Part shown: one piece after another, positions 21,479-43,578 of the stretch
Layout of the letters: each line of letters begins with the position of its first letter
Position numbering within the stretch: the stretch's first letter is position 1
Origin: Dirinaria sp. TL-2023a
Lineage: Eukaryota
Length of the DNA stretch: 43,578 bases
Assembly: GCA_051941275.1 (NCBI GenBank)
Contig: JAVEBF010000032.1
Span: forward strand, 1 to 43,578
Direction: 5' to 3'
Made by a program: the position numbers and the translations under genes
Notes under the pieces: generated by a model
Told to the model about the DNA's origin: nothing
What the model saw: only the letters and a program-made list of their open reading frames with translations
Databases searched by the model: none

Positions 21479-22698
21479 GGCTGGGAGACCTGTTGTCGAC
21501 CTATGCTGTAGAAATTATTTTTCCTCCCTCTCCCGAAATATCTATAAAAGGGGGAATTGGGTATAATTGAAAAGAGGGTGCTGCCTACCTAGTGCCTAAG
21601 GTAAGGTAAGTAAAGTAGAGTATGTACTTCAGTTACCAACACACACAACAGGCACGACAGGCAGCTCCGATTTTACGCGCGCGTACCGAGGACACGCCAA
21701 GCCCCGCTAAGCCCGGATATCAAGATCTTTCAAGCCGCCCTCAATTGGTTTTTTCTCTGTACTCCTCGCTCGAAGAATCGCAATCGGAGCTCACATACAG
21801 AGAGCGCATCCAAGATGTCTCTCAACCATCTACCATGCTTCGGGAGAAAGTCCCCGGACAGCTCGTTCTTCCTCGGAAGTTCGAGAACGCCGAGAGGCGC
21901 CGCCATAAAAGCAAGCTTCGCGGCTGACCTCTCCTCCACCTCCCCTACCCTTCTATCCCTTTCCTTCACCGTCTGCACTCCCCAGGAACCGCTTCTTTGG
22001 GTCCCGCGTAGCAGGCCGCCTTAGCCTCTTTGTGTGGGTTTTGCTTTTGCGGTGTATCTACCGTTGCAGGGACTGGGGAGGAGGTGGGGATCGTGTAGGC
22101 AGGAGGAAGGGGGCTCATAGGTGCGTAGGGGAGGGTGCTTTCGTCGAGATGGATAGGCATGCGATTGCCTCGGATGGGTCTGCTTGGGTCGAAAGGCCTG
22201 GGCCGGGCTTGGAAGAGGTAACTCAATGGGGCTTATTCTTGAGGCGAGGAGTCCGTTTCGTTCTCCAATTCCAGGGTCTGTCCTTAGGTCTCCTGTTCGA
22301 CTTTCTGCTGAATTCTTTTCGGATGGAAGGAGGCGGAGATCAGGAGGAGTGCTTGGTCAGACAAGCCAGACCCATATACGTTCAGGTGATGAGATACCTA
22401 CATAGAGTCAAGCACCGAGGCGCCCTGCAGACCTACAGCGGTGTCAGAGTGCCCCTGACGATTACAATATGCGTTATGGTATCTGATGAACGTTTCCCGC
22501 CGCAATTTCTACGTCTCTTGGGCTGTGAGTGCGCCAGGTCGCGAATTCCTATTTACCGATAGTCAAGCAAGCATGTTCAAGCGATAGAAGCACATGGGCG
22601 GAGGCGCATAGATAAATGCGTAATAAATCTAAATGATACCAGCTGGTCCCTGTTTGTCCGACGCCACCCTCCCTTGTAGCAAATACAGCGCAAGCATT

Positions 22699-24698
22699 TC
22701 ACCCTTTCTCGGAGTCTTTGGCATGACCATTAGCGTTGCCAATGGCACGACCGTTGACTTGTTCGACTTTCTTCTCGTCTTCTTCGTCACTGCTGGCTCC
22801 TCCAAGGCTGTACCTTTCCTCTTCTGTGCCCTCATGAGGTTGCTCAACATGCAGGTCGTCAAGTTCGGCTTCATCAAAGTCTGCTGCCTCGACGTCTCTG
22901 CGGTGGCCATTGTTCCTAAGGCCACCCATGAGATTGCTGCTCGAGCCTCCGAAAAGTCCGTGATAGCCAGCCCGTTGCCTTCGACTTCGCCATATCCACC
23001 ATCCCCAGGCCGTTGCCGATATGACGACGATCACAAGGACCACTTCACCAGATCTGTAATAAGCATGCCACGTAGCCTTTTCCAGCTTATCTTCTTCGGC
23101 TTGTTCAGCGATCGTGCTGTTGGGGTGGCCACCAACACTAGTTTGGACACCTTTCTCTCCATCGAGGCGCGAATCGGTAGGCTTTCCACCGATGCTCGCT
23201 ATATCCACGTTCAAGAACCGGTCCAGCATGTCGCGTGATCTTCTGGGATAATCGAAGGGTACCATGTGCGAGGAATTATAGAACAAGACGTAAGTTAGGT
23301 TCCTGGCTTCTTGATAGATGCCAGCAGCCTCGCCCTCGAATGTCCAGTCTCTCCGCGGAGCCCATGTCCCTGGCGAGAGCTCAAACCCTTGACCACCATT
23401 CCATTTCATGTTGTGGATCATTTCTTCTGTACCGAGGTGGTTGCAAATGAGATCCTGATCCCCGGAGAACAAGACGATGGGCATGTGCTGAAGCAAATCC
23501 GGCAGTAGCTGGATTGAAGGCTTCGAACTTCGAACTTTGAAATTGGAGCCAACCGCACCAGAACATTCTGTCCAACCAGTGTGCTTGTCCTTGTTGACGT
23601 GGAGTGCTTCTATCACTTCTTTCCTTCGTAGGTATGGCGTCACTTGTTTCAGGTCCGGCGGCCAATTCATTCCGCAACTAGGGTAAGTGTCGTCGAGACG
23701 CACATCGTACATATTATGACAGCGTCCATCCTTTTGAGATAATCGGAGAATATCCATCAGGATCTGCTCGCAAATCGATATATCGACTTTATCAGTTCCC
23801 CCAGGCTGGTTAAGCTCGTTGTTACATTCTGCTTGCTTCGCTTCGATTTGTTTAGCCGCATCGGTTCCGCCCTGAATAAGACCTGCTTTGTAGGCGTAGT
23901 CGAGGTATGCATGATATTGTTCCGGGGGCGATATCCACCCATTTCCAATCAGAAGACCAGAGACATTCCAAGCGTCCTTCGCATCCTTCTTCCCGTTGCG
24001 ATCAAGAATAGCTTGTGCGATATATGGAATATGTTGCCCGGCGTAAGACTCTCCACTGATATATAACTGCTTTATGTCAGCACGAGACATATGATAGCTT
24101 GACCAGCCAACTTACATCATTGGTGGCGTATTCCGGGAAAATCGCAAAGAACTTCTCAAGAAACCGAACCATCTGATCCGCCATCTCCGTGAGTTCGTGA
24201 ACGTAGCTGTCCGTATCGACATAACTGAAGCCGGTTCCCACAGGGTTATCAACAAATAATACATTAGCGAACTCATCCCAGGCACCCTCATTATACACCA
24301 AGTGCGCGTCATCTTTCAGTCTGTATGGCCCAATCTCCATCAATGCACCGTCCATGGAGCTGCATCCCGGTCCGCCGTTGACCCACAGTACGGTCCGTTG
24401 CCGATTAGCGATATGGCGATTTTGGAAATGCCAAAAGAAGAGGTTGCCATGGTGTTCGGGAGTGACCTCGATATGACTTTGAGAGGATATCAGCGCTGGA
24501 ATAACCAAGGTTGATATGGGAAGCATCTTACCCGGCATGCATGTTGAGCAATGGGCCGGCTGGTTGCCCAGGCAAGGAAGAGACATAATAATCGGCCGCG
24601 GTCTTCTCTGCCACTGAGATCGCAGGGTAGCAGAGAAGCAGCAGTACATTGCATAAATGTAGGATGGGGACAGCACCAGGCAGCGGCCACCTGGACAT
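22699..24698 (-). CDS. KEX1: Pheromone-processing serine carboxypeptidase Kex1 (S10), 3 exons
   Basis: Signal peptide, [38 protein letters not shown] (catalytic Ser), [18 protein letters not shown]-terminal transmembrane segment and acidic tail. Confidence 0.95.
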
Positions 24699-25458
24699 TG
24701 TAGTCCCACGGACACGTCGCATTATTGTGTTCGTCAACCCTTCGTCAAGCTATTCCGGCAGCAGCCGTATCCTAATCGCTTTTCTGCCTTGGAAATGGGA
24801 CGTAGCGTCCAGGGCGATGGGTATACCACCAGCATCCGGCTTGACGAGGAGCGCAAGGTGTGCTATGTACTCAAGTTGCGCTGGCTGGCACGGGCTTAGA
24901 AGTACATTTGCATTGCGTCACCGTAGATTGGGTTTGCAATACCGGTAGGGACAGCTATTAGCGATTCGTAAGGCGTGTATGTGGCTGAGTTGGTGACTGG
25001 GCTCGCTAGCAGTGCCGGACGTGAAAAAGCACAGACGGAGTTCATCGACCAGTCGTCTATCAGATGCGAAATAATAATGGAAAATCCATCGGTATTACTG
25101 GATTCGTATTCCAAACTACCTTAGTGCCTTAATAATCTGCCGTGTCTGCCCCTGGGCTCCTACTCCTAGTCTCCTGGGGTTTCCTTTTGGACCGGACAAG
25201 GCTACTGCTCGCTAAGTGAGCGCTAGCTGAAACGGGATGGACCACTGCAAATGGAATTCGAAAGGAAGAGGGATGCGTATTAATATTGTGTATGTATGTA
25301 CACCATCAATCGCATTTGCGTGGCTACCTAATGTACTATGTGCCTAACGCGAACTGCTTTACATCTGATGACGACCTCAATATACAAGTGTTCCACTGCG
25401 GGCCTCTCTCTCTCTCTCTCTCTGACACCACACAACTTTTCAGGGAACTATCTTCAGC

Positions 25459-26334
25459 CTATAACAAATCCCCGAAGCCTTTCTCAGAATCTTGCTTGAT
25501 CAGATCAATCATGCCCTAAGTCAACGTGGTGCCTCACGTTAGATAGATCGACAAAATCGACAGCTTCCAAATTGGATCGGGTTTCGCACCTGTGGCATGA
25601 CTGGCGATCCGTCACTGTTCACCATGTATCGGAATGGCATCTCCGTGCTCTCGTGTTCATCAATGCGCAATTCGGGGTGGTCAGTATAAGGAATATCCTT
25701 CAGACGCACTTGATCGAACTTCAGCGAGTAGATAGTTAGTTGTTGAAGACCTGGGATTGCAATACCTCTTTGTTGTATAACTGTCCGCGTCACTCGAACC
25801 GCCGTATCTGTTGTCATCTGTATGGGTCCAAGTCGCCTTCCTTGAAAACCTTTCTTGCGCAATTCAGACGTCCGATCTGCGACTAGCTGAGCAAATTGAA
25901 CCCTTGCAATAGTACCCCCGTTTTCCTACCACGAGGCGGATCGTCACCTGCGTCTGCGTCAACTATCAAAAATAGCAGCGACTGCCTCGAGAGTGCTGAG
26001 TACCCAGTATCCCGCCAAAAAGGAAAACGTCGAAAAGTACGGAATCATCAGGACTGAGCTCGTCTGTGGCTGCAGGGTCCAGCAAGCACACGCGATCCTT
26101 CGAGTCTTGGTACAATTCTTCGACGCCTCGGCGTTCTACAGTCACGGCGGTGCTTCTAGTAATCTCCACAGGCACGCTTAGAGCCTCGGAGACTGATGAC
26201 AGGCAGAACGAGGCCCCGGATTCCCGTGACTCTTCTGCGATTGCTAGATACTCGAGTGTCGACCATGGCCCAAGTTCGGGGTCGAGATGCTCGACAACGT
26301 ACGTTTTGCTTTTGGCGGGGTTATGATGCGCCAT
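25459..26334 (-). CDS. SFM1: SPOUT methyltransferase Sfm1-like (DUF431), multi-exon
   Basis: YVVEHLDPELGPWSTLEY, VCLLDPAA..ELSP.D, FLFGGILG|DDPPR|DRTSELRKKGFQGRRLGPIQMTTDTAVRVT, ESTEMPFRY, MPQ|GMIDLIKQD. Confidence 0.88.
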
Positions 26335-27410
26335 CTTTCAGAGATTCATTCTTCGGTCGTTCATCCAATGAGCGAATGCGGACTAAAGACAATGGCTCCC
26401 CGACGGTGGTGTCAGAACCATGCAGATAGCTTAGCTAATACACAGTAGGTAGCTTTCAGCTCGTATCAAATGATCAATGATTAGCACCGATCTCATTGCA
26501 CATGGGGGATGATGATATCTGCAGAAGCGTGCATTGGCATTAGCTTTTCCAATACCTTCAGGAAGGTCGACGAGGTCGATTCTTGCTGGCTCCCTGCATC
26601 GGCTAGGGCGGGTTGAGCGGCCGCCTCGGCCGCTAGACTGCCCCACTTTTTCCGGAAAGGCGCATCCTTTGACCGATCGGATCGGCAGATGGGATTTGAT
26701 TGGCGATGACTGAGCGTGACTAGCCGACTTGGATTGCTGGCGCCAAACAACATTCAGAAGCTCGTCCTACTCTCATACCTTCCTTACCTTCCTTACCTTA
26801 CCTCACTCTGTACTACTGGCCTGCACAACCCACTTCCCCTCTCGTCAAAAGCTAGTCCTGTACTGTACATTAGCAACTCTCGGTACTGTACTGTACTCGT
26901 ACTCTACTCATTATTATCATCCTCATACCAACATCCCCCCCCCTTGGCCTTCATTCTGCTGACGAAACAACCTTGACTCCTCTTCCTGCCCGGACCCTTT
27001 TCACACCACATTCCACCTCCTCAGTGCCTCTCTTGCGACGCCCCCTAGTCAAGCGGGGTGCCTTAACAGTCCGAGTCACAAGACCGTCGGTGGGCATTCT
27101 TCATCGCTCTGCTCTTTATTCAATCTTTCATCCACTGGCCATTGCCCTACAAAGTCTTCAGGCCTCCCATATCCGCAACGCTCGCAACCTGTCCTTCAAA
27201 TTTCCGCTCTGCCGATCAACCCACGGTTCGATCACAGATCCTATAACCAACCAAATACGTCACACCAATCCTCGAAGTGGCCCCTTGCTCCAGACTAGGT
27301 CAATCAAAAGCGGCTCGAGTTTCAAAGGTGTCGAACTCTGTCCTAGCTTTTCCCCAAGCATTTCCCAACCTCAGCAATTGTTTCTACTGCCACTCGGTAG
27401 CCTAGATATC

Positions 27411-27979
27411 ATGAATCCTCTTCAGAAGAACAAAGTTGACATTAGCGTAAATCTACCCTCCATTCGCACCATTAGGGTCCAACGCTTACAATATCTGATA
27501 TCAGTCCCTCACCGAAGAAGAGCAGAAGCTGTTCCGCCTCTATGGCAAGCTTCCTAACAAGAAAGATCTTCTGCAGAACAAATTAAAGGTAGGCACTGAA
27601 ACATCGAAAGCTCCCATGATCAGACACGCATCAGCTGACGAGCGAGCAGGAACGTAAATATTTCGACTCCGGCGACTATGCGCTTTCCAAAGCCGGCAAA
27701 GCACCTGAAGGCGGCGTCACCAACATCGGCTCTCAGCATCCTCTCCCCGAGAATATCCCGCACTTGACCTCGCCCGGTCCCAATAGCACGGCCAATGGCA
27801 ATGGCAACACGAGCGCCGGGCCTATACCTGGCGGCCAGAGCGGTAGTCCCGTAAAGGAGAGCAGCTTCTTGCAACGCTCCGAGAGCATTGACGAAGGTAC
27901 TAGCCCGCAAAAGGATACCAAAGCAGCCAGCAACAGTCCGCCAGCGAAGGAGGGTGTGCCAATCCGATGGCAACACTGA
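27411..27979 (+). CDS. Endosulfine / Igo1-like cAMP-regulated phosphoprotein, 3 exons
   Basis: MNPLQKNKVDIS|SLTEEEQKLFRLYGKLPNKKDLLQNKLK|ERKYFDSGDYALSKAG; FDSGDY is the Greatwall/Rim15 target motif. Confidence 0.9.
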
Positions 27980-28283
27980 GGCCTCCTGGAGAGGCTTGTT
28001 TCGCGCGCAGTACATAGTCTATACTTTTCAGGCGTCAGGTAACGGATAAAGGCTGCGAGGTATGCTATGTCACGAGTCAAACGGAGGGTCTTCTCTGGAG
28101 TCTAGATAAGGTGGAACTGTACAACCCGGTGTCGGGGGGCTTTTGGCGTGCGGACCCCAAGAGTTGTTACGATCAACAGTGGATCAACCAAAAAAACAAA
28201 TCTTTAAAGCCATTGAGGACTCTTGACGACCCTGGTGATTACCCCCACTCCGGCGCTATGCATGATCAAATGCCAGCCTTGGT

Positions 28284-29375
28284 TCAAATCTCCAACGCTT
28301 GCTTCGCCATTGCTAAAGCCCCTCCCTTCGTCTTGTTCCCCCCAATGAAGCCACTGGCATGCACGAACACACCGCCTTCAATGCCGGACACCTTGTCCAG
28401 TTCGTCGTCCCTAACTCCTCTCCACGCCTCCGGCAACGCCTTCCTGCTCTCAAAGCTATCCTTGCTCACGGGTACAGCCTGGATCCGCCATTTACTCCCT
28501 TCGTGTTCCCCTTCCGGGTACAGCACATAAAGGACCTCTTCCTCACTCGAGTTTTCCGCCTCAAACGTATAGAGATGATCCTTCCACGGCATCCCCCGCT
28601 CAAAGACCATGATCCTGCCCCGCGAATCATTCTCTTTCCGCCTCGCATAGCACTCCCTCACCCCTTGTCTCGCCGGCCACCAATGCCGATGATAATACCT
28701 CAGCTTCCTCAAAAAAACCGAGCCCATCAACTCACTCGCCTGCAAAAACCGCGTATCCTCCGCCTCCTGGACTTGTTCAGGGTTCGACAACTCGCGGCGC
28801 TGCTCCTCCTCCTCGTCATCATCCCACGCATTCAAATCAGCGACCAGACTCCCAAGCCCGATCCCGCCATCGTTGAACCGTTTAGTGAGACGCCGCGTCT
28901 CGGCGGGATCGTAGACGGCGATCCCATTATCATGCGCATCCAACGCCTCGATGAACTCTTCATACACCTTCCTCCACAAGATCCCAACCTCGGGACTCGC
29001 CTCCGCCAACCCGGTCTGGCGCGCGATGATCGGTTTGCCGAAATGCAGGAACACCAAGCCCGCGGAACTCAGTTTCGTCGGTCGGGAGGGGAATGTTGTG
29101 TTGAAAGTGCGTTGGTGGTGGTCGTAGCGGTTGGCGGGCGGGTCGTATTCGCCCCCCACGTCCACCACGGTGTGGCATGTGGAGAGCAGGGCGGGATCGC
29201 GGGTGCGGATCAGCGCCGAGGGGGAATATGTGGGCAGCAGCCGCAGGAGGTAGACTGCGAGGGCTTCGTCGGCGTGGAATTGGCCCGAGTGCGTGCCGAT
29301 CAGGGGAGGGGAGGTTTTGATGCGCTTCGAGGTGGGCGAGGCGGACATGATTGTTCGGATGAGGGTGCGGAGCAT
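28284..29375 (-). CDS. MYG1: MYG1 family exonuclease (UPF0160), single exon
   Basis: IGTHSGQFHADEALA, VVDVGGEYD, RYDHHQR, KLSSAGLV, ALDAHDNG, SRKALPEAWRG.RD, FVHASGFIGGNKT. A second Met lies at ~29348. Confidence 0.95.
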   Translation of the reverse strand: MLRTLIRTIMSASPTSKRIKTSPPLIGTHSGQFHADEALAVYLLRLLPTYSPSALIRTRDPALLSTCHTVVDVGGEYDPPANRYDHHQRTFNTTFPSRPTKLSSAGLVFLHFGKPIIARQTGLAEASPEVGILWRKVYEEFIEALDAHDNGIAVYDPAETRRLTKRFNDGGIGLGSLVADLNAWDDDEEEEQRRELSNPEQVQEAEDTRFLQASELMGSVFLRKLRYYHRHWWPARQGVRECYARRKENDSRGRIMVFERGMPWKDHLYTFEAENSSEEEVLYVLYPEGEHEGSKWRIQAVPVSKDSFESRKALPEAWRGVRDDELDKVSGIEGGVFVHASGFIGGNKTKGGALAMAKQALEI

Positions 29376-30712
29376 GGACTGGTGGAGAGAGTGACTTCAA
29401 TACTACTGTGTGGTAAATAAGGTAGTGCATCAATATACAAGGGAGACTTTTTAATCCACTCGTTTATCTAGGGTATCGCCAGGGCCTGCTGCTGTGTACC
29501 CTAACTTAGGGTTATTCAAGGCTCCAGACTTCTTCCCTTTTTCCCTCTACCTTATTCCCACGTTACTGGTAGAGCCATTACACTTCTGAGTAGGGTTTAA
29601 GGCGACCTCGACCGAAAGAAGACTTTTCTGCATTTAAAAATGTCATCAATAAGCGCTGATCGACTGTCAGTGCACGCTTTGAAGAGCAGTCAAAGGATAG
29701 TCAATCATGAATCGACCACTCAGGATCATAGCTGTGTTTATTGAACAGGCAATCAGTGTGAAGTCGATTTTAGATTCTATATTCCAGAAACAGGAGCGAT
29801 TCCAAGCACGAACGGTATGAACGGTCTATACAGGCTTCTGTACAGTCATCTTCTCATAATTAAATGGTTCCACGACTCTTTGAAAGCACTGGCGGGAATT
29901 CGAGTAATAATTGATACATTCATATTCGCTTATCTATCGTTGTCTACTAGAATTATAGCACTTAAGAGCATAAGTAATGCTGTTTCATTGCGTGGCATGA
30001 ATGGGTGCTCGTCTTTAGACCTGCATAAAGCACGAGTGTATTCATTCCCTAATCTCATAATACCGACACAACTTGATGGTTTGACGGTGGCTCTTTGAAG
30101 GTGGACAAGTCCATCTTCATACATTGGTACTTCTTGTCATAGTCGCCGAAGCTTAAAGAATGCTAATTTAGCTAAATGATCAATCTACTAATGGAGGGCA
30201 TGGGACAGCTTTGTTGAGGGCGAGTGGTAATTTCGCCTCACTTTTCTTCAACTATTTGTTGGGCGTAGGTACTTGATTATAAAATTTTAGGAGGCAGAGA
30301 TACGAAATGGCGAGAAAATGAACAAACGATGACTAGAGATGATAATAAAAGACTGCCAGTGAAAGTGGATCTTAAAAACCTAGAGGGAGAGGAGGGAGGA
30401 AGGGAGATTAAGAGAAAGGAATAAGTTTGGGTACCGGTGGAGGTATAGACTTAGTAGAACGCAGGAGGTCTGTGCAGTTATTGGGTATAGGATGTCGTTC
30501 CTACGCCTTAAACGTAGATTGTGCAAACAATCCCACGTGGCCAAAGCCGGTAGACACAGAGTAAGTAGCAAGTGAATTTGGGCCAATAGACCGTCGCCTG
30601 TCCACTGGCGGTTTGTGGAGATGCTGTAGGAGCCTTTTTCAATATCAGACAAGATGCAGCCACTCGAAACTTTGTAACGTGATAGGTGATGCAGGTGGAC
30701 CAGCCGCTGATA

Positions 30713-31965
30713 CTAGGTACCAGCAACTTGATTGAGGACCCCTCCATCAACGGCGATAACCTGTCCATTGACATACATGTTTTTTGCTAAATAGATTACG
30801 GTCTGCGCCATTTCCTCGTCACTGCCGGGTCGCTGGGCCGGTACGTGCCCCTTTTCCTGAACCTTTTCGTGCGGCATCTCTGTCTTGTTGTCTTCTCTGC
30901 TATCTTTCATTGTCATCTCCGAAGGGAAGTATCCAGGCGCTATGCTGTTCACGCGGATCTCAGCCTTCTCAAATTCGGAGCTCATCAATTTGGAGAGGTG
31001 AACAGTGGCTCCTTTGGCAGCGTTGTAAGCAAAATGTCCTTGGGAATTGCGCATGAGACCGGCTGTATCGAAGTCTGGGGTCAGCGTTACTAGAATGGAA
31101 AAACGGAGATGCAATGTAGCTTACACATGCTCGAAATTACAATGACAGAAGGTGATCGGGGAGAGTGTCCATTCTTGAGTGCTGACTGCAAGAGTGGAAG
31201 GAAGGCAACCGTGGTGAAGTACACCGATGAGACGTTGGTGTTCATGACCGAATTCCAGTCTGAAAAAGATTCTGCGTTCCACAGCGACTTTTGTAGTTCA
31301 GGCGCTGAGGCAGAATCCGGAATACCTTTGGGCCCCGAGATGCCGGCATTCGTGACTGATTCGAACGATCAGCTCAGGGATTGTACAGACGACCAAGAAC
31401 TAACTGACTAAGAAGATTAATGAACTTCTCTTTCGAAGAGATGTCCTTGACTAGCTGATCGAGGTCCTCCTTTGAAGTGACATCGCAGGGGCCGACGCTG
31501 AGCGAGCTGTCAACCACATGACCAAGACTCTGACCTAGAATGAATCTCACGGTATGATCCGGCCCCCATCTTCTGGGGTATGGTGCTTTGCAGCATTATC
31601 AAGAACTTCTCTGCGTCGACCAGCGATATAGACCTTGGCCTAAGTACAAATAAGGAAAAGCATCCTAGGTACGTGTGATGCTCGCCACTCACACCGTTGG
31701 CGGCCAGCACTTGTGCTATGCGTTTCAGCAGTCAGCACAATTGATAGCGAACTGATGCCAGCCTTTGCTACCACAATTCAGAAGAATTAAAGCGCCTCAT
31801 GGCCCCATGCATAATTTTACGAACGAGACGAAGCGAACATAGACTTGACTGAAGATCTTACTTACTAGCCATCAGTCCAATTCCCGTTCCTCCACCAGTA
31901 ACCACACAGACAAAGCCTCTCACAGAGAACAGGTCCTGAGCTTTGAGTTGATGCGTAGCGGCCAT
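30713..31965 (-). CDS. Short-chain dehydrogenase/reductase, multi-exon
   Basis: DLFSVRGFVCVVTGGGTGIGLM (TGxxxGIG), AANG|AKVYIAGRR, CDVTSK, NAGISG, YNAAK (YxxxK), IRVNSIAPGYFPSEMT, VNGQVIAVDGG. Confidence 0.9.
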
Positions 31966-33002
31966 GATGGCGGTCCAGGATTTTGACGGTGAGGGTTTTG
32001 AAGTCTTAACCACGTCTCTGAGAGTGAGAAGGCTTCAGGTCGGTCCGATCATGAGACTTACAAGCCCGGTTGGAGATGAAACCAGAAGGGTGTTTATGGC
32101 TACCTACCTTAAAGGTACCCTGAGGTATGGTACCTGTCAAGTAAAGGTTACAGTGCCTTAAGGTGGGTAAGGTAAGATATAAGGTAAGGTATGTACTGTA
32201 GGTAGATTCTCGATAACTGAAAGTGGGGGTTTCTATTGCGAGCGACCCCACTCACTGCTACTGCTACTGCAGGAACATAAAGTACCTTAGGAATGGTCTG
32301 CTTCGTTACGTCACCTTCAATCTTTTCCAACCTTCCATCTTACCTCTCCCACTGGAGTAAGATACACTACCTTCCTAAGCTACCTTTATCTTCCCAGTTT
32401 CCCATTGCGGTAATGGTAAGCAATGAGGGCGTGGTGTGGCTTTAGTGGTTACCATGGTAAAAGGTCTCTTGCGAGACTATTAGAAGATCGACGCTCATAT
32501 TCGCCCATCGCCTCCCTCCCGTGAAACATCTCCGCCCAGCTGGACTGATGGCAAACATCTCGAGTGCGCTGACACGACTTAGGGGAAATGACTGCTCAAC
32601 ATTCCCCCTGTCGCTGGTCGCTTTATGAGGTGCGGTGGACCTAAGACATTGGAGAGAATCCTTACATTAACAAGTAACAATAATATGTACAGGGTGTCTT
32701 CAAGTATAATAACACCGTTCAGATCCTTGGGATGCTTGACAGATAATCAAGCGATCCTATGTGTCAAGCACTTGCGAAGTCTGCCGTAGGCCCTGCACAG
32801 TTCACGGTGACAGTTCCAGCGGTGAACAGGGGCCACGCGAATGCTGGCTCTGGTTTTGCCCGCGCCTGAAGCTCCACGACCGTAAATCGTTCGCTGCGCT
32901 TCTCATTTTCAATGATTCTTGAATCGTTCGGGGTGGCTCCCTAGCACTGTGTTTGCTTGATTCAAAGGTGCCCTTTTGAATGTTTCGAATTGCACAGCTT
33001 CC

Positions 33003-34373
33003 TCAATCAGCTTTCCAATGGCCTGTGAGTCCGCCATCAATATCCTCTTTTCCCAGGCATAGCTCCAGCGCGTACATAGCCATGAAACCGGCAACGTTGA
33101 TCCATCTCCAGAAATTTCCACCGGCATCACCGCCTTGACTTGTCCACCACTCCGCTGGACCGCCGTCACCACCGCTCGATGCGAAATGCTGCATCAGGAG
33201 GCTGGTGTAGACAGCAATCAAAATGCTTGGGCTGAACCAGCTGAGGAGTCCAAGAATTTGGCCAGCACCGTCCGAGTCCTCAAGGGATGCTTCTTGAGAC
33301 AATGCCCGAGCTCCCGATTCGCGAACGGCGGGAATGATACGGGTTGAGGCGTACAAGACGAATAAGCGATAAGAAAGCGATATGATAACGGAGGGGGTTA
33401 TGGTAGAAAGTGCAGCAGTTACAAAGTTGAAGGCCGCGTGAATCGTTGATGGCAGGACGGAAAGCGCGTGCATTAGAGTGGTATAAGAGGCCATGATAAT
33501 GGGGGGAAAAGGTGGGAAATCGGCAGGTTGAGGAGGAGGTGGTGGTGACTCCAGAGGATGGGAAGGTTGGTAATCCGTGAAGATTTGGTAGATGCAAAGG
33601 ACGATGTAGGCGAAAAGTAGGGAACTTTCGACCGGGTTCCCTTTGCCACTGCCAATCCCCAAAGCACCGAGGAAGATGGCACAAGTGATAGTGATCCCAA
33701 TCAATGTGGCGTCGACGTTGCTGATTTCCGGGAAATTTGCGATACGCCAGAGGAAATAGACCGAGCTTGAAATGATCGAAGCGGACATTACGAGCAATCC
33801 AATCTGTAAAATTGTTTAGCACTCATGCAGTTACCATGCTCAGTATCTTACCATCCAGGTGTCGGTCCTGCCTCCCCTGTTTACGAGCCATCTTGTGATC
33901 TGACCTGCGGCCTGGATGACTAACAGGCTACAAAAGCCTTCAACGAGCTGGAAAACGGGCGTAGACCATCTAAGCAGCTTGTCCCAGCTTCCCACTGTTG
34001 CGGTCTCAACCAGTCCATTGGGCCCGAAAACCCACTGTCCGACTGAAACGTCCTGCGCCCTTTTTCCACTGAATGTTCGCTCAACCCAGCTTGTATCGTT
34101 CTCCGTGTCAATCGAGAATCGGTTCAAGGACCAGATGAGTAATGTAGGAAGCCATATCCATTGCGTCCATCCGATGAGCTGAATCAAAATCCACCAGACC
34201 CGAGACTTAGATGGCGTTGACAAGCGGATGACGGAATAGATGAAGTATACCGAGGCTAGAGACAGTGAAAAAGCCAATCCACAAGCTCGTCCTCCGACAT
34301 CGAAAGCCAAGGGTATCGAGAGGATGATGGAGGCCAAGAAGACCACAGATGACCCGACTCTCAAGATCCACAT
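33003..34373 (-). CDS. ICE2: ICE2 family ER membrane protein; intron 33804-33851
   Basis: LSIPLAFDVGGR.CGLAFSL, STPVFQLVEGFCSLLVIQAAGQ, GIGSGKGNPVESSLLFAY, FSPSILIAVYTSLLMQH; multiple hydrophobic segments. Confidence 0.9.
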
Positions 34374-35773
34374 CGGCGCAGAGGCCGGGCACGCGTAAAA
34401 GCGCGCTCAGCCGAGAATCTTTGTGCTCGGCTTAATGGTGAAATGAGAGGGTTGAAAAAAGGATCTCTGGTCTTCTCAGGGAGTCACGAGCGTGCTATCG
34501 CGATGATTTTCCCGACTTGACTGAGCAAAGGGGAATCGCAACGTTGGTCATTTGCACCAGCGTTACAGATTCTTGATGGCTGCAGTGGGCTTTTCTAGCA
34601 AGTCCCTTGTCGTAAATTTTCCGTGTCGCGTGGAAACCTATGCCTGGAGCATTTTCAAGGCAAGGCTATCGATTGGACACTAAGGTACCTCAGAACTGTG
34701 TGCTAGCAAGCAGGTTCTCAAGTGTTTAGTTGCCGGTGGATGATGCAATAAGAGCAGGCGCGCAATCCCGGAAGGCAAACTAACCTGTGCCTGTTGAGAT
34801 ATGGATCGCACTTACCTCGCAATGACATTAAGATAAATTCAGATGTTACTTGGTACCGCCCTCTATCGCTCTGAGCATCGAGTATCTCATCATTATCCCA
34901 CCACGACGTGGAGCTGTACCTTGCCTACAGTAATGTACTTTACTGTAATTTCGAGTTCTTGGCGATTATCACATGCAAATTCATATTTAGTCAGGGTTAC
35001 TCTAGGACTATTGAACGGATGAGCTAAGGTAAGATACTTTAATGAGAATAAACTGATTTTCCTTCAATGTTCGCATCACGTCCTCAACATACCCATGCTG
35101 TAGAGCTTGCACCATCTCCGAAAGCAGATTCCTGAGTTGACGAAGAGGAATCCCAATTGCCTAATCTAATCCCCAACCGCTGTTTCACAAGGAGCAGATT
35201 GGGGTTCGCTTTCTGGGCATACATATGAGCGAGCGGATTTATACTCAAGCAGAGATCCTTGTTGAAGATGAACCAAACTTACCAACCAGTGAATGATTTA
35301 TAGTCGGTCGAACTTGATGACGATGATAAATACATATTGAAATGCTAGATATCAATTGTGATGTCGAAGAAAAATTAATTCGTCGCAGGCGTTTAGAGAA
35401 CCACACTAATCATCATGTATTCGCTCCGAAGTCTTTATTTACCCGGTGCCAGATCTATTTCGCAAACCTTTGTCCGAGTAGGTATTGCTGGACAGCAGTA
35501 ACGGACGCACAGACTTTATTCAGGACGCGCTTTTCTCGATTGCTCTTCCACTGTAGTGCTTCTTATGTCAGACCGCTTTGACTGTGTCAAAGATGTAGGG
35601 ATCATCATTCAGTTTTCCGTTATTCACGAAACCCTCGTCCGAACTCAGTCGAGTACCCCCCTAGACAATTGCAGCTAAAGAGGAAGCTCTGTGGTATACA
35701 TGCATACATGTATAAAGGCAGAAATTGAATGTACCATCCTTAGTCACATTCTGCGGTATCTTCGACTTGGGTT

Positions 35774-36403
35774 CTAATGTGTAATGTCTTCTATGCCCCG
35801 ATCGACTTTTTGAGCTCGACCATGGCCTATCTCGTCTGACATAGATGTGCTTGGCTTAGACTCTGCAATGGCCTTTTCTATGATCTTTTCTATGACCTTA
35901 ACCTTGCCTTCGGCCCTCTTGAGCCGGTCGTCAAAGTCAGATACAGCCTCCTCATCGTTGCCCGTAGAAAGGCTGCTTGGCTCAACCAGAGCATACAATG
36001 TGCGAATATGCTTCGCTAAGCGCTCCGCCTTGGGCAAATTGGGTAGCGAATCTGAAGCTACTCCACGTACTTCACTTTGCTGATGAGATTGATCTCCTTT
36101 GGATCCTTTTGCTTGTTGACGCGCCATTGTGTTGTTGTCTTGGGATGAAGCATGGGTCTGCCCGTATCTTTCTTTCAAGGGCAACCTATTGGCCCAAATG
36201 TTTACTTGTCCATGCATCTTACCACTCGAGACATATTTATCGAAACCTTTTTCAAGCCCGAAGAAACGGCCCTCAATGAGCCCTGCGCGACAACCGTCTT
36301 CGACGCCCAGATGGTACCCTTCTTTGTAAAATTGATTCTCAAGACTTAGCAAGTCGCCAAACACGTCATCATCCATCGTCGAAAGGTAAGATGCTGGACT
36401 CAT
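35774..36403 (-). CDS. LTO1: Lto1/ORAOV1-like Yae1_N (deca-GX3) domain protein
   Basis: DDVFGDLLSLENQFYKEGYHLGVEDGCRAGLIEGRFFGLEKGFDKY with GX3 spacing. The start may be the second Met. Confidence 0.8.
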   Translation of the reverse strand: MSPASYLSTMDDDVFGDLLSLENQFYKEGYHLGVEDGCRAGLIEGRFFGLEKGFDKYVSSGKMHGQVNIWANRLPLKERYGQTHASSQDNNTMARQQAKGSKGDQSHQQSEVRGVASDSLPNLPKAERLAKHIRTLYALVEPSSLSTGNDEEAVSDFDDRLKRAEGKVKVIEKIIEKAIAESKPSTSMSDEIGHGRAQKVDRGIEDITH

Positions 36404-37412
36404 GGAGCTATGTGATGGATTGAGCGCTGATGGATCATAATCTCTTAGTCTGGATCGTTTGTTGGCAGATATTGCTTTGCATGCCTTGAATCTTTAGATG
36501 ATCAACGGAATGAAACCTTACTTGATACGCACGATTTCCTGATGTTGCTTGTGCGGCATCCGTCCGTAACACGGAGGTCTACGGCATGAGTTCTGGCTCG
36601 AGGGAGGTAGCGTCGTGTACGCCAAGACTAGTCGTCCGAGTGACTACAGGTGGGCTTTGAAGAGCGTAGCTACACCCTAGGTCGCGAGTTGGCGAGTGCG
36701 GGTGACAAAATTGGGTGGTCCCGCGGTCAACTTCCAGTTGATCCCACCAGTGTGACACTGCCCACACTAGCTAGGACTTACGGCGTGGACTCTGTAGATG
36801 TCTATAATTCTGATTTTATAGGACTTATATTGTGCACTGCACACAGAGTATTTATGAAAAAGAGTGTCTCCAAGATACGCTTGTGAAGGTGCCAGCCAAA
36901 TGGCGTAACAAATGTACTTGGAACGATAATCAAGCTTCAATATCCTACCTCCCAAAATTTGAGAGGCAAAATACCTAGAACAATATTCTCACCTTGAGGC
37001 AGCTCGACAGGTACCTGCGCTAAGGTAAGGTAGGGGTACCTTACCTACCTTAGCTTGGTGCGAATTCTTTACCGAGGGTTAGGGCTGCTAGTCCCGATCG
37101 GGTAAAAACAGCTCCACCACTGCTAAAGTCTCTGCACACTGAGATACTGTTAGCAAGGTACTGTAGTTTCTCAACAACTTGTTGTTTGATGCTTTGGTAT
37201 TAGCTTAGTTTATTAAGCAGTTTTTCATAGTCAGATTCTTCAGGAGATAAGTAATTTACATGCCATTGATCTTCATAGCTAGGTGTAGATGGTAAGGATG
37301 ATGTATGCGCTTCTCCATGTGTTTGCTTAGCTCTATAATCCATTGATAGTCACAATTATTTCGCCGATTTGGCGAGCAAGAATATATTCTTGGTGTATGT
37401 ACAAAAATTACC

Positions 37413-37421
37413 AAAAAAAAA
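37413..37421 (-). terminator. RNA polymerase III T-run terminator (T9) downstream of tRNA-Pro
   Basis: Nine A on the + strand, 16 nt past the tRNA 3' end. Confidence 0.8.
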
Positions 37422-37437
37422 GGCATTTGCATCCTTC

Positions 37438-37578
37438 GGGTTTCGCCGTGGTTCGAACACGGGGCCTCTCGCAATTGTACCTAGGGTGCCCCCTAAGCGA
37501 GAATCATACCTGGAAATGCAATTAGCGGATGTTGCGAGTATATCAATGGCGGGCAATTTACCACTAGACCACGAAACC
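37438..37578 (-). tRNA. tRNA-Pro(AGG) with two intervening sequences: a 52-nt GT-AG intron in the D-loop (37510-37561) and a 17-nt canonical intron at 37/38 (37474-37490)
   Basis: Spliced sequence GGTTTCG TG GTCT AGTG|GTA TGAT T CTCGC TTAGGG|T GCGAG AGGCC CCGTG TTCGAAC CACGG CGAAACC C (72 nt). It has a perfect 7-bp acceptor stem, 5-bp anticodon and T stems, and the C73 discriminator typical of eukaryotic tRNA-Pro. Confidence 0.92.
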
Positions 37579-37602
37579 GTAGATATCTCCCTTCGCACAA
37601 AA

Positions 37603-37616
37603 TTTTTATATATATA
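37603..37616 (-). promoter_or_regulatory. TATA-like element about 25-38 nt upstream of tRNA-Pro
   Basis: TATATATATAAAAA on the minus strand, at the spacing expected for TFIIIB binding. Confidence 0.55.
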
Positions 37617-40600
37617 CAACAAAAGCTAACCTGCTCCCATCTATGTTGTTTCTCGCAAACAGGCGCAAGTTAAGAGTTTATTCTATTGCAAATCAAGGTA
37701 ACAATCACTGCTCCCGACGAAATCATCAAGTTTTCAGTATTCAAAGAATGAAACAATTTGAGAAGTCACTACTGCTACTATTAACAGCTTATCATGGATT
37801 AAGACAAAGCCATGTGAACCGGATTGCCGCAGAAATATTTGCCACAATTAGACACACATTCAGGAGTTTAGACTAGGGACAAGAGGAGCTCTTGATTGTA
37901 AGAATCTGTAGGTAGGTAAGGTATCTGCCGAGCAAGAGAAACTACTAATGTTGTTGCAGGACTATTGGGTAGACATCAAACACCAGGAAAACTGCATACA
38001 TCATCTTCATCATCTACTACTACCTACCTCAAGGAACGATATGTCAATTGGTTATGTTCTAAGAAATGTGGGTATTAAAAGAACTTCTGAATACATCAAG
38101 TCGATACAAGAGTACTCCTTCATCATTCTGTCTCAGATTAGATGCGTGGTAGGCATTCATGCGATATGCACAATATACATATATGATAATTAAGTTACGA
38201 AGGTACGAGGGTACTCGACAAAAGAAGAAAAAATTTGAAGAGTGTGAGAATCCCGAGTAGTCCGCCATGCGCTGTGGAAAGGTCAAACTGTCATTGTCAA
38301 AGTCAAAAGGTCAAGGCATAACCAACATCAGTAACATGGCTCTTGGCAGATCCTCAGACACGACCTCAGAATAACTACAGTATGTGATACTATCTTATCT
38401 TAGAGACTTCAGCTAACCGGCACGCTCTTTAGTGACATTCTTGGCATGTCTTTCACTAGTCAGAAATTGTGACAAACTTTCTGACAGCTCAGCTCGCTGG
38501 TCTTTCTTTATCCTCACGGTACAATCGATTTGATCTAATTCATGAATCATTATCAGAACATTCTCGACGCACCTCAATCAGACGGAATTTTCGAAGGGGT
38601 TGACAATGAGGGCAACATCGTGTTGAAGGAGAACATCAAGTGGCTCAGAGATTCAAGGGTCAAGATTCTTCTAGAAGATCTTTCAAGAATTGCGTTGGCA
38701 TTCATCGAGATCTGTCTCAAACAACGTATAGAAAATGCATGAACTGAGAGTCTCTATCTTCAGGCATAGAACTAATCTCACGTTTTCTCAGAGATCTACT
38801 ACTTATCTCTTCGTACAACCCCGATCCGAAATCGATTCTGACGAGCGCTCTGTTCAAGAGATCGCTACTTTGATATTTCGTCGTCTTTCTCAGCTCATAT
38901 ATCTGTCTTATGCGTGGGGTGATCAGGATGTTCAAGCTTATATGCTGAGATGAATCATGGTGAGCGTTTACACATTCTAAACGCTCGAGCCCGAGGGCTG
39001 AGTCGAAAGTACTCAGTGATATCTATCAAGCTTCACATCAAGGACCCGAACAGTGTAATGTGGCTCCTTTCTTTTCCTTCATGAACCGCTTCAAGCTGAG
39101 TCGAGTCTCCTCTTAGGCGTATATAAGTCTGATCCCGGGGAATTAGTTTCATGTGGCTGTCCCGGCTTAGATAGGATTAGAAACAGAGCAGTCGGTTGAT
39201 TTGCGGCGAGAAATACTGAGCATGTGCAATAGCTAAGCTTATCTCAAAGCAACTCTCTTAACTGTCTCTTGTCAGTCAGGCAATCGATGAGATATACAAC
39301 ACATCGAAAACTCGTTTATCAGTCTCTGATAATTAACTACTCATTCGTTGACACGCGATCCATGAACATATGAACTGCATTGATTGCGAGACCGGAATAC
39401 TCCCGGTCTTGAAGGTAACTCTTCGGAAGAAACAAAAACACCTTGGTCTACAGAGTTGACATCATATCTGATAAGTAAAACCAGCATTTTGGCCCTCTCT
39501 TTGATAGTAGGTAGGCAAGAAGCGCCGTGGCAAATCTAAGAGCCAAAGGGACTATCAAATTTATCCACTGAACGACGCATCAAGATTGCAGACTTCGTCG
39601 ACGATCTTGCAGAAGTGCTCCATCTGCTTCCCAAGTATCTGTAGTTGCTTGTCGATCTAGCAGCGATCAGTCTTAGGTTTGCAAATTTCCGGTTCAGATC
39701 ACAAGAGTCCAAAACGTACCGGGCCATTTTTCGCCAATCTCGGATCTTCGCTCTGGGGTTGTTCTGAAACTTCCATTCTGCCTCTTGCGAGATAGTATTC
39801 TTGCATGAGCCTTTGGGACTGGCGGTGAATCACTACCGCACCGCCTTGCTTCGGGATATTCTATGAGCTCTGATAAACACATGTTCATTTACTCTTGATT
39901 TATATATCTACGCTAAACGGTATCATCGGACTGAAGCTGCGGCATCAGCTCCGCCATTGAGAGAAGACTCATTGGATCTAGCGGTAGCAGAGGCACGTCG
40001 AGGAGCTGTCTCTGAAGCGACTTTCAGTACTGTCTGACCCGTCTCACTTGTGTTTTTCAGGAATCAGCTTTGATCATCATGAGACGTCGAGCTTTCTTCC
40101 TGATATATGATAAAGTTACGTATTTCTCGCTTGATCGTGCTTTGAGCGCTACTGTCGTTTGCTCTGAGGCCAGCCTGTTTCTTCTTGTATCGCTTTCTAA
40201 TGATCTCTGGCTGCAGCAAGAAGATTTAGCAAACTTCCAATTATAAACCTATATCACTTACCTGACGTTCCAAGTAATACTTGTGTGTCCCACACAAGCA
40301 GTTCTCAATCTTCTCTTTCTCGCTCTTCTGAGTGTCTATCTTGTAGACATGTAATTTCGAAGGATGTCCGCATTGGAATTCGATCTCGACATTTGCCAGA
40401 CATCGCGATTCCGACAAGACGGTCATTGTCGTAACAAGCAATTTGTCGAAAATCGAGGATGTGCGATAGATTCCGATGCTAAAATCAGAATAGAGTCATT
40501 AAAAAGAAGCTCAAAAACGGAGATTGTTACTATTGATGGACACTGCGAAAGAAGAGAGACAGTTCTGCTCTATAAATTGACTCTGAGCTCAGGTCGATCG

Positions 40601-40970
40601 AAAAACTTAAGATTTCAAAAGTGCTCAACAAAGAAATCACGTTTGTCAGCTGTTACGCTTCGTGTGTTTTGGAAATTCATCGCTGACTCTGAATCTAGAC
40701 CTGTTGAGCATTTTGAGGATCTAGCAACTGCCAGTCTATTGAAGTATGAGTGTCTCGGGTGTCTGCCGAATCAGAATCATCGGCTGAACGGGGGAATGAG
40801 GAACCGCGCAACATCTCTTCTCATGTCAGATCTCGAATGTGCTTTGAGCTCGGAAAGGCACCCAAATCTGTCGATAGGTTTGACTTTGACAGGGAATGAG
40901 CCCTCTATAGCAACAATGATTTTCCGTTCTTTGTTTTCAAAGGAGTTTCGCTGTTTGGTATTATCGACAT

Positions 40971-41642
40971 GTGAATATCTTTGCAGAGCCACTCCTCCGT
41001 CAGGTCAATGCCACTGGTACAGATACTCAGAGCGCATTGACGAACAGCACCTCGCAGAATCAGCTCGCTGAACAAAAGCTACTTCATGAGAAAATGTCAG
41101 TCATCATGACGATCTGGCAGAGGAGATTCGCTTTCCTCGAAGGCCCCGGAGTGCGCGTTATCAACAGAGTGCGAAAATCTCGTAACACGCTCGGCAGATT
41201 TCAGATCAAATTAGAAAGCGCCACAAGAGAGACTTCGAAAGCCAGGACGAATGTCATAAAGACATGGAGCCTCTTAAGACGTGTGAGTCGATTTATTGGC
41301 TTAGTCCGTGTCGAGCCAGAAGAGCTTTACTCGTACAATGATGCTATTGAGACTCTGGACGAATGTTACAAGGAGATGAAACATCTTGAACAGCTTTATA
41401 CCACAATCTGGAATAACATCACAGACATCAATGGAAAGATTCGTGATCTAGCAGCAAGTAAATTCTCAGCTGACATTCAATCTCAATTTGGGCAAGATGG
41501 GCTCGAAGAGCTATACTTTCTTTGGTTGGGCGTGGGGTCAGGGGCTCGAAGTCTTCAAAAGACCATTGATGGTGCTCTATTAATCAAGAAGGAAGCTGCT
41601 ACAGAAGATGACAAGTCAGAAATTGATACTGTGAATGGTTAG
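40971..41642 (+). CDS. Hypothetical helical/coiled-coil protein (223 aa), possibly the 3' part of a decayed larger gene
   Basis: Longest protein-like ORF in the accessory region, with amphipathic patterning. No family recognised. Confidence 0.4.
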   Translation: MNIFAEPLLRQVNATGTDTQSALTNSTSQNQLAEQKLLHEKMSVIMTIWQRRFAFLEGPGVRVINRVRKSRNTLGRFQIKLESATRETSKARTNVIKTWSLLRRVSRFIGLVRVEPEELYSYNDAIETLDECYKEMKHLEQLYTTIWNNITDINGKIRDLAASKFSADIQSQFGQDGLEELYFLWLGVGSGARSLQKTIDGALLIKKEAATEDDKSEIDTVNG

Positions 41643-41762
41643 TCTCAATAAGTGCCTAGATATTTGTTAGGAAAAGTAGAGAGATAGGCTGTCGTAGCGG
41701 ACGTCTTTTCAAGGGATTACGTGTCTTGAAACTTATCGGCAAGCCACATAGCACCTTCACCA

Positions 41763-42466
41763 ATACATTCTCTTTTCGACCTCGAGGGCATGCTCGCCGA
41801 AAGTAAGCAACCTCTGAAAGACACGATGGCGAGGCGCTGGCCGGCCTCTTAGCAGTTCCCAATGATGCGGCGATTTCAGGCGGTGACTGGCCGCAAGTCC
41901 AGAAGCAGGTTGCAAGCCGCTTGCCTGCACTCGCAGACAAGTCGAACCTCTCGCTCATGTTGATCACCGGAACTAAACTCTACACGCACAAAAACGCGGA
42001 TTGGTAGGCCGTTTACGCTAAGCTGTTCGGCGGTAAACATCCTGCAGGCATTCAACGCCTCGCTTGAGATGATCGGTTCCAAGCCGCAGAAGACTTGGAG
42101 AGATCAGATCGATGGTCGTGGGAGCCAAATCGCCTTCTCCACGCTCGACCAGAAAGCGCCGATTACAGAGAACAGACAGGGTCATTTTGGTAGATCTGTG
42201 CAGAGCGACTGCCGGAGCTGTCGGTCAGTATAAGCCGGACAAGCTCAAATGACATAACGCGTAAGGACATTGACAAAGCGTACGGTATCAACAGGGTTCC
42301 CGACTCCAGTAGGATCCTGCTCGAGCAGATGATGCTCATCGTGGATGCGACCCTGCCTGGAAGCAATGATTGTCCGGCAAAGGAGTCCGGCGTGAAATCG
42401 GTGCTTGTGAGGAATTAGAATGGTATGCTCGCCGCGATACCGGCAATCGTAGCTTGCCTCAAGTAA
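41763..42466 (+). pseudogene. Decayed bacterial-type HAD-IIB hydrolase (phosphomannomutase-like)
   Basis: Manual translation across frameshifts gives FDLEGMLAESKQPL..M/EALAGLL...AISGGDWPQVQKQVASRLP...TGTKLY...W*AVYAKLF/ILQAFNASLE...TWRDQIDGRGSQIAFSTLDQKAPI/RLPELSV...SNDITRKDIDKAYG...LEQMMLIVDATLPGSNDCPAKE...IVACLK*. Confidence 0.8.
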
Positions 42467-43210
42467 TGGAAGACGTCGCGTGAGCGATGTCCGTGACTTC
42501 AGCTTTGTCAAACGGTGACATTGACTTACTCGCATTAATGTGCTTAATCCTCTTAGAATTACGTAAATTGGATAAAAACCAGTGTACGTAGCCACAAAAT
42601 AGCTTCGGTTTGATGAGTGTTGTAAGAGTTGTATCTGAAGATTGCGCCTTGCAAGGACAGTAAGAGATAAGGACAACAAGCTGTAGAGACCCACCGCAAT
42701 CTGGGTACAGATATCTCGAATGCGCGTAGAATTTTTATCTATTCCTGGCAGATCAGAGTTTAAATCAAATTTCGAACTGGGTGTGCACTTACCGAAGCTC
42801 TTGGTGCACGGAATACATAATCTATTCAAAAGCCGTCCAAGGATGAAATGCGATCCTGCGGATGGCGAGAAGAGTCGGTGCTCTGGATATAGCGTTATTC
42901 GAGGATTCGACGTTCCAAGTACGCCTTGGGGGCCAGAGGTTAACGAAGAAACTTAGAGGAACGGTACTACATCGATTGATCATGAAATACGCTTTAGTTA
43001 GCCATCGGGTAAATACATGTCTCTCTTTAGGGTGTGTCGAAGAGAGCTCTTAGAGAACAAAAGAAGGCAGAATAGAAAATGTACAGGTTATGCCATATGG
43101 GGCTCCGCCAACCATAATCTAACAGTCTCCACCGGTGTTCCAAACGCTAGACACTGAGAAGCGACTTCTATGCAGACACTGCTCACTCCGGTATTACATT
43201 CTACAGATAC

Positions 43211-43578
43211 CTAACTCTTGAACTTCATGCCGGCGCCAACGGCAGGTATTGCTCCTAACACCAAAATTAGCCAATATGGTCATCCACGAGGGAGCCGAGA
43301 AAATTACCAGGAATCCCACCGCCCATAGCTCCTAGACCTTGCATAGGATTGGGAAAAGCAGCTGCTCCGCACAAGCAAGAGCAAGAGCACGCTTCTCCTG
43401 TGCCCGTTTGTCCACTGCCTTGAGCCATCAGTGCACCCATCGATCCGCCTTGATTTGATAACTGCCCAGCCCCAGCTCCCATGTTGACCATGCTAGAAGC
43501 GGCAGCAGCAGATGGAGCAGCAGCGGGAGGAGGAGGCGCGGCGGGGGCGGTAGCAGCAGAAGAAGCGGCAGCAGGAGG
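43211..43578 (-). CDS. 3' end of a probable extracellular Ala/Pro/Ser-rich protein (cupredoxin-associated type); intron 43255-43307
   Basis: Ala/Pro-rich linker, then GEACSCSCLCGAAAFPNPMQGLGAMGGGIPG|AIPAVGAGMKFKS*; GTAATT...GCTAAT...TAG intron. Confidence 0.65.

Follow-up and report, generated by a model that had tools for sequence, protein, structure and literature searches.

Can a nuclear tRNA gene carry an intron of the kind that the spliceosome removes from pre-mRNA, and can such a gene still yield a tRNA? This question is raised by a tRNA-Pro(AGG) gene located on the minus strand (37578-37438) of the window, i.e. the whole 43.6-kb stretch of DNA that was analysed. The gene is interrupted twice, by a 52-nt insert in the D-loop and by a 17-nt intron at the place that is usual for tRNA introns. 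According to section 8.1 of one review, tRNA splicing never uses the spliceosome (PMC13149111), and a 2018 review on U6 names U1, U2, U5, U6 and rRNA only as non-coding RNA hosts of spliceosomal introns (PMC5855946). No report of a spliceosomal intron in a tRNA gene was found in the literature searched, with subscription journals and bioRxiv supplements lying outside this search and an earlier report being possible.

Read along the minus strand, exon 1 (37578-37562, 17 nt) comprises the 5′ strand of the acceptor stem, U8, G9, the 5′ strand of the D stem and the positions from A14 to G18. Its acceptor strand of 7 nt pairs at all seven positions with 37445-37439. The 52-nt insert (37561-37510) follows between G18 and G19, a placement that was obtained by reading the sequence and from ARAGORN after in-silico removal. 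Exon 2 (37509-37491, 19 nt) extends from G19 to G37 and supplies the 3′ strand of the D stem, the 5′ strand of the anticodon stem and the anticodon AGG, while exon 3 (37473-37438, 36 nt) contributes the 3′ strand of the anticodon stem, the variable loop, the T arm, the 3′ strand of the acceptor stem and the discriminator C. The exons contain the invariant features U8, A14, G18, G19, U33, G37, the T-loop sequence GTTCGAA and the discriminator C. Between exons 2 and 3, after position 37, lies the 17-nt intron (37490-37474), which was identified by ARAGORN once the insert had been deleted in silico. This intron includes CCCTA, the complement of the anticodon region, and it conforms to the canonical description of a eukaryotic tRNA intron, being located at 37/38 and pairing with the anticodon region; the 52-nt insert, located at 18/19, does not. 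The locus is intergenic, with a Yae1-domain gene (35777-36493, identified by Pfam) downstream on the same strand, and no Pfam family was found in the small ORFs that neighbour it.

The raw locus is not recognised by the tRNA finders that were applied to it. ARAGORN reported no gene at its default settings, and Rfam returned no tRNA match at the gathering threshold, nor at E values up to 10 within 37300-37720. When introns were allowed, ARAGORN proposed a poor tRNA-Ile(gat) with a 65-nt intron. This reading was rejected, as it has a D stem of two pairs and one mismatch in the anticodon stem, and discards perfect tRNA-Pro arms as ‘intron’. A coding reading was rejected as well, since the 89-codon open frame across the locus lacks a Met and its translation is nonsense. 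Upon deletion of the insert in silico, ARAGORN called a tRNA-Pro(agg) of 72 bases with a 17-nt intron at 36-37 (ARAGORN numbering). The resulting cloverleaf has 7/7 pairs in the acceptor stem, 5/5 in the anticodon stem and 5/5 in the T stem, and both ARAGORN and our reading of the sequence found it to be canonical, with the invariant bases in place. These results bear out an earlier note on this DNA, which had described a minus-strand tRNA-Pro(AGG) gene with 52 nt interrupting its D-loop in addition to the normal intron, a description that is correct to the base. The same note had stated that exact removal of the insert gives a 72-nt cloverleaf, as was indeed called by ARAGORN on the in-silico spliced sequence, and that standard finders would miss or miscall the locus, which is what both programs did.

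Outside and inside the tRNA body, the locus has elements that are consistent with transcription by Pol III. An A-box-like 11-mer (37571-37561) extends from T8 to G18 and takes in the first base of the insert. It is unbroken because the insert starts with G, just as G19 would supply. A B-box-like motif in the T arm (37460-37450), found by reading the sequence, is whole. We take these two motifs to be the A and B boxes on the strength of the general consensus, in which case neither internal promoter box is disrupted by the insert, which is located immediately 3′ to the first of them. Further upstream, sequence reading revealed a TATA-like run of 14 A/T bases (37616-37603), which is located 25 to 38 nt before the first tRNA base; TATA elements near −30 are a feature of fungal Pol III genes. 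Termination by Pol III occurs at runs of T, and a nine-T run (37421-37413), 16 nt past the tRNA end, was read as the terminator. No run of four or more T was found within the 141-nt precursor, nor in the pre-tRNA of a second locus, L001, that is described below; Pol III should therefore read through the precursor of the window gene. In the reading that we favour, the insert apart, the host is an intact nuclear tRNA-Pro(AGG) gene of the Pol III type, in what is probably a lichen-forming ascomycete.

The insert carries the signals of an mRNA-type intron. It begins with the donor GTAAAT (37561-37556) and contains a branch motif CTAAT (37525-37521), the branch A of which (37522) precedes the end of the insert by 12 nt, and the 3′ part of the insert consists of a pyrimidine-rich stretch followed by a CAG acceptor (37512-37510). 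Position +5 of the donor is A and not G, which counts against splicing. Since the insert and exon 2 both begin with GTA, five cut registers (−1 to +3) would yield an identical product, and only one of them has GT..AG ends; exact removal in this register restores the host tRNA. The position between G18 and G19 given in the earlier note held, with the refinement that it is the single GT..AG register among five equivalent ones.

As a yardstick for introns in this genomic region, we used RNA contigs from four runs that belong to one sample of one study, labelled as a lichen metagenome, and that were aligned to 23579-43578. Identity between the contigs and the window is 90-99%, and short segments of the neighbouring genes are absent from the contigs, leaving joints. 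There are at least 23 such joints in all, of which 15 were listed, and the 12 with GT..AG or CT..AC ends were kept as introns. The joints left out were 25877>26002 (TG..GT, 15 letters between), 31353>31409 (GA..AC, 2 letters between) and 32412>32454 (AT..CC). Rather than introns, these three resemble replacements or indels by which the strain that was sequenced differs from the one that yielded the RNA. Among the 12 listed RNA-supported introns, a length of 48-74 nt is found in 11, the remaining one being 150 nt long; A or G is present at +3 in all 12; the donor GTAAAT is used by one, located at 27447-27504; and CTRAY occurs 6-27 nt from the end in eight. Their 3′ ends are CAG (seven), TAG (three) or AAG (two). 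With its length, its +3 base, its donor, its CTRAY motif and its CAG end, the insert is consistent with every local intron feature that was counted, and, like the local introns, it has an extended donor together with a branch motif that is spaced from the acceptor in the usual manner. This supports two further statements of the earlier note, namely that GTAAAT also serves as donor of another intron in the window, which is true of 27447-27504 in 4/4 runs of the one sample, and that the length of the insert, 52 nt, is typical of local introns. As to the branch motif, which the earlier note had also seen in two other introns (given there as those of Rud3 and Ski8), the agreement with the RNA-supported introns is one of the CTRAY class: CTAAT is absent from the eight local branch motifs, which are CTGAC, CTGAT and CTAAC, and GCTAAT does not occur as such among the 12 listed RNA-supported introns.

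The extent to which chance could produce this resemblance was estimated with a null model, in which 2,000,000 random segments of the window, each of 45-75 nt, were placed at the insert site with all tRNA-restoring registers allowed. GT..AG ends were obtained in 1.16% of the cases. This fraction decreased to 0.61% when R at +3 was also required, and to 0.043% (853/2,000,000) with the further requirement of CTRAY 6-30 nt from the end. For an insert located at the D-loop site, such an intron-like look is very unlikely to have arisen by chance. Judged by its sequence, the insert is very probably an mRNA-type (U2-type GT-AG) intron.

The splice signals could still be coincidental if the insert were a non-canonical tRNA intron that is removed by protein enzymes, be it a relaxed form of the endonuclease or another nuclease together with a ligase. 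D-arm introns that are processed free of the spliceosome exist in Cyanidioschyzon merolae and in nucleomorphs, with a mechanism that is obscure for some of them (PMC4090602), and as the five registers give the same product, the use of GT..AG is not forced. We nevertheless consider removal by such enzymes very improbable. The bulge-helix-bulge motif (two 3-nt bulges and a 4-bp helix) was absent from the window gene and from L001 in all registers. The best central helix had 2/4 pairs under strict conditions and 3/4 with relaxed cut positions. The earlier note had set the insert apart from introns that are built on this motif, and indeed none of the five registers contains it. Moreover, the insert has nearly no structure of its own, folding weakly when taken alone (−1.8 kcal/mol), and its combination of splice signals is one that the null model yields in only 0.043% of random inserts. 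The recurrence of GT..AG in L001, at a different register, likewise favours GT..AG and speaks against a fixed structural cut site.

A group I or group II self-splicing intron was also considered and ruled out on the basis of the length of 52 nt, the weak fold and the lack of an Rfam match; introns of these groups have a conserved catalytic core and are hundreds of bases long. In the local minimum-energy fold, the sequence TAGTGG at the end of exon 1 (37566-37561) pairs with CCGCTA of the insert (37528-37523, both on the minus strand), which overlaps the branch motif, and the pairing extends weakly into the D stem. In this model, the pairing could be due to chance, could mask the branch site or could hold the splice sites together.

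The L001 locus was detected in a metagenome scan for the two halves of a tRNA-Pro D arm separated by 38-68 unspecified bases, a pattern that did not require GT or AG. The scan gave this one further locus, on a 128-kb contig, and the same pattern had 0 matches in prokaryote genome contigs and viral contigs, which contain few or no fungi. L001 (1440-1600, minus strand) is tRNA-Pro(AGG)-like, and its D arm, anticodon arm and anticodon AGG are the same as those of the window gene. Its D-loop insert is 57 nt long (GTTAGT...AATAG). Its D-loop can be restored in two registers, of which the one with GT..AG ends is located at 19|20 (G19/U20), one base beyond that of the window gene; the chance of GT..AG at such a D-loop site is ∼1.2% in the null model. 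An intron of 23 nt at the canonical place includes CCCTA, matching the anticodon region, and a T7 run directly follows the 3′ end. The tRNA body of L001 is degenerate, with 5/7 pairs in the acceptor stem as we read it, a variable region and T arm that together are 3 nt shorter, and a non-canonical T loop. This decay is confined to the acceptor, variable and T-arm parts, and ARAGORN found no credible tRNA in L001 after removal of the insert. The insert has T instead of R at +3, and contains no strict CTRAY, only the near-match CCAAC.

A common descent of the two inserts was not supported by our comparisons. The global alignment score of the window insert and the L001 insert was −2 as compared to −4.5 ± 3.5 for 2000 shuffles (p = 0.28), and the last 20 nt alone gave p = 0.22. 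No synteny was found between the flanks of L001 and the window, and the surroundings of L001 gave 0 Pfam families in six ORFs and no usable match in the protein atlas. The search for split tRNA halves elsewhere, as suggested in the earlier note, was thus successful in that it uncovered one GT..AG D-loop insert, but this insert resides in a degenerate tRNA, has incomplete signals and shows no detectable homology to that of the window. What the two loci show is that GT..AG inserts recur at this part of the D-loop in tRNA-Pro(AGG) genes, which is distinct from conservation under selection. L001 itself is most simply read as a pseudogene, and the two insertions hint that the D-loop just after the A box may be a recurrent entry site for inserts.

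L001 lends weight to the view that the window gene is also a pseudogene, inactivated only recently. In this view, the D-loop of one among several tRNA-Pro(AGG) copies was invaded, either by an mRNA-type intron or by a mobile piece resembling one. The invader could have reverse-spliced into the abundant tRNA, the product then being reverse-transcribed and recombined into the genome, or it could have been inserted directly into the DNA. Transcripts made by Pol III would then remain unspliced and the gene would be dead, although not yet decayed. Such a course of events is the main alternative to a working, spliced gene and a serious possibility, even though we would not expect it to prove correct. 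Insertions in the D and T arms of eukaryotic tRNA genes are usually read in this manner (PMC4090602), and the window gene resembles those cases in having a D-loop insertion and in being, perhaps, one of several synonymous genes, as does the decayed L001. It differs from them in that it has no other defect and that its insert has the full set of splice signals. All 72 exon positions fit the cloverleaf, and the promoter-like elements, the terminator and the splice signals are intact. For a gene without other defects, neutral decay as a pseudogene would require a very recent event. In addition, at both loci the promoter boxes are whole and the insert contains no Pol III stop, neither of which a dead gene needs. 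Genes for tRNA-Pro(AGG) are usually present in multiple copies in fungi, which speaks for the pseudogene reading.

A mobile origin of the insert could be suspected from the 4-nt direct repeat GGTA by which it is flanked. However, any GTA...AG intron between G18 and G19-U20-A21 produces such a repeat, which follows from the splice consensus and the D-loop sequence and is therefore no independent evidence of transposition. An introner or a MITE would be marked by many similar copies in the genome, a target-site duplication and terminal repeats. Blastn-short searches of the 43.6-kb window and of L001 retrieved the insert itself and, beyond it, nothing but matches of 7 to 13 bases; the lack of a further copy in these sequences counts against the pseudogene reading.

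The RNA contigs, which show no splicing at the tRNA locus, might be counted in favour of an inactive gene as well. Their depth was 0 in all seven bins between 36919 and 41587 in 4/4 runs of the one sample from the one study, such that they are silent on the tRNA either way. This stretch of 4.6 kb, which lies around and upstream of the tRNA, is devoid of RNA contigs in the four runs, with the neighbouring genes being covered. Its long frames, two on the plus strand (40355-41068 and 40920-41639) and two on the minus strand (38720-39022 and 39539-39829), gave no Pfam family.

The same four RNA runs, none of which covers the site, were the only runs found for the organism, and no independent DNA run was found. 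This leaves some room for an assembly or sequencing artefact, which we group with a chance resemblance to an intron and with an RNA that functions unspliced, the 52 nt being looped out of the elbow. All of these are very improbable. A clean 52-nt insertion with splice signals inside a perfect tRNA is atypical of an assembly error, and a similar structure was found on the unrelated 128-kb metagenome contig. The elbow depends on contacts of the T loop with G18 and G19, and a working unspliced form is therefore unlikely.

The explanation that we favour is that the precursor has two introns, which would be removed by two splicing systems. Since neither intron has a run of four or more T, the Pol III transcript would start shortly after the TATA-like run and end at the T9 stretch, with a length of ∼170 nt. 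The nuclear spliceosome would remove the D-loop intron, forming a lariat at A37522, and the contacts of G18 and G19 with the T loop, i.e. the elbow, would thereby be restored. The restored elbow would be needed for export and for the measuring of the mature domain by the endonuclease. Subsequently, the tRNA splicing endonuclease would excise the 17-nt intron, leaving two halves to be ligated. Two circumstances count against spliceosomal removal in addition to the A at +5 and to the pairing of the branch motif with exon 1 in the local fold. Firstly, the 5′ exon is only 17 nt long plus the leader and, secondly, Pol III transcripts have neither the cap nor the Pol II tail through which the spliceosome is normally recruited. 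Whether the insert is truly spliced and the gene yields a working tRNA is, on the present sequence evidence, an almost balanced matter that tips slightly towards the negative. The broader idea that lichen-forming fungi carry mRNA-type introns in tRNA genes too, with a pre-tRNA-Pro that needs both the spliceosome and the endonuclease, is one that we put forward tentatively and with some doubt.

Precedents for mRNA-type introns in genes of this kind are found in fungi. According to PMC5855946, such introns are carried by the U6 genes, which are transcribed by Pol III, and by the U1, U2 and U5 genes. The U6 introns occur in Schizosaccharomyces pombe and others (Tani and Ohshima 1989, 1991, cited in PMC5855946), with a patchy distribution among fungi and reverse splicing as their proposed origin. 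Like the U6 introns, the insert in tRNA-Pro has the form of a short GT-AG intron with a branch site in the gene of a small structural Pol III RNA, with internal and TATA elements. The two cases differ in that U6 is located in the catalytic centre of the spliceosome, which is the reason why it would be hit by introns, and in that U6 is without a second intron of another kind. They differ also in their standing, as splicing is known from experiments for the S. pombe U6 and is predicted from the sequence for tRNA-Pro.

Lichen-forming ascomycetes furthermore have spliceosomal introns in their rDNA (Bhattacharya et al. 2000, cited in PMC8527467), and one of these, when moved into yeast, was removed from Pol I transcripts (PMC8527467). 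The insert resembles the lichen rDNA introns as an ectopic mRNA-type intron in a highly expressed structural RNA that is not made by Pol II, and the kind of organism is probably the same. Unlike in the rDNA, the host is a 72-nt Pol III tRNA with a 5′ exon of 17 nt plus leader, as opposed to a Pol I rRNA transcript with a length of kilobases, and the tRNA also needs a second, enzymatic splicing step. A further likeness exists with tRNA genes of archaea, C. merolae and nucleomorphs, which can have more than one intron, including one in the D arm, and are missed by standard finders (PMC4090602; PMC9602550). Those introns are cut by endonuclease at bulge-helix-bulge or related motifs, whereas the insert in the window gene has GT, branch and AG signals and no such motif. 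By analogy, the present case would extend the ectopic mRNA-type introns of the U6 and lichen rDNA kind to tRNA, and one precursor would be served by two unrelated splicing systems.

If the insert is spliced, the spliceosome would be able to process a short, ordinary Pol III product other than one of its own components, and the gene would represent a clean natural case of intron gain by reverse splicing into an abundant RNA. The supply of tRNA would be coupled to the capacity of the spliceosome. Such a coupling would fit the proposal that ectopic introns slow the growth of lichens (PMC8527467). The numbers of tRNA genes in these fungi would, moreover, be underestimated. A further kind of tRNA intron would have to be placed beside the endonuclease-cut and the self-splicing ones, and with it a class of genes that is hidden from every standard finder. 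If, on the other hand, the gene is a fresh pseudogene, it would still be one of the rare loci that capture the arrival of an mRNA-type intron in a tRNA gene.

Two other features of the window were recorded. An RNase MRP RNA gene is located at 21763-22249 on the plus strand (Rfam RF00030, 95.2 bits, E 1.8e-25), and its 487 nt far exceed the 266 positions of the model. It contains a large unaligned insert. A search of this gene (21763-22249) for GT..CTRAY..YAG intron candidates gave none. CT-rich and GA-rich runs within its insert look complementary, suggesting a long extra helix. Lastly, 12617-16369 on the minus strand is an uninterrupted frame of 1251 codons that encodes an NPHP3_N/NACHT-type NTPase domain followed by many ankyrin repeats, a fungal NLR-like architecture that is typical of filamentous ascomycetes.
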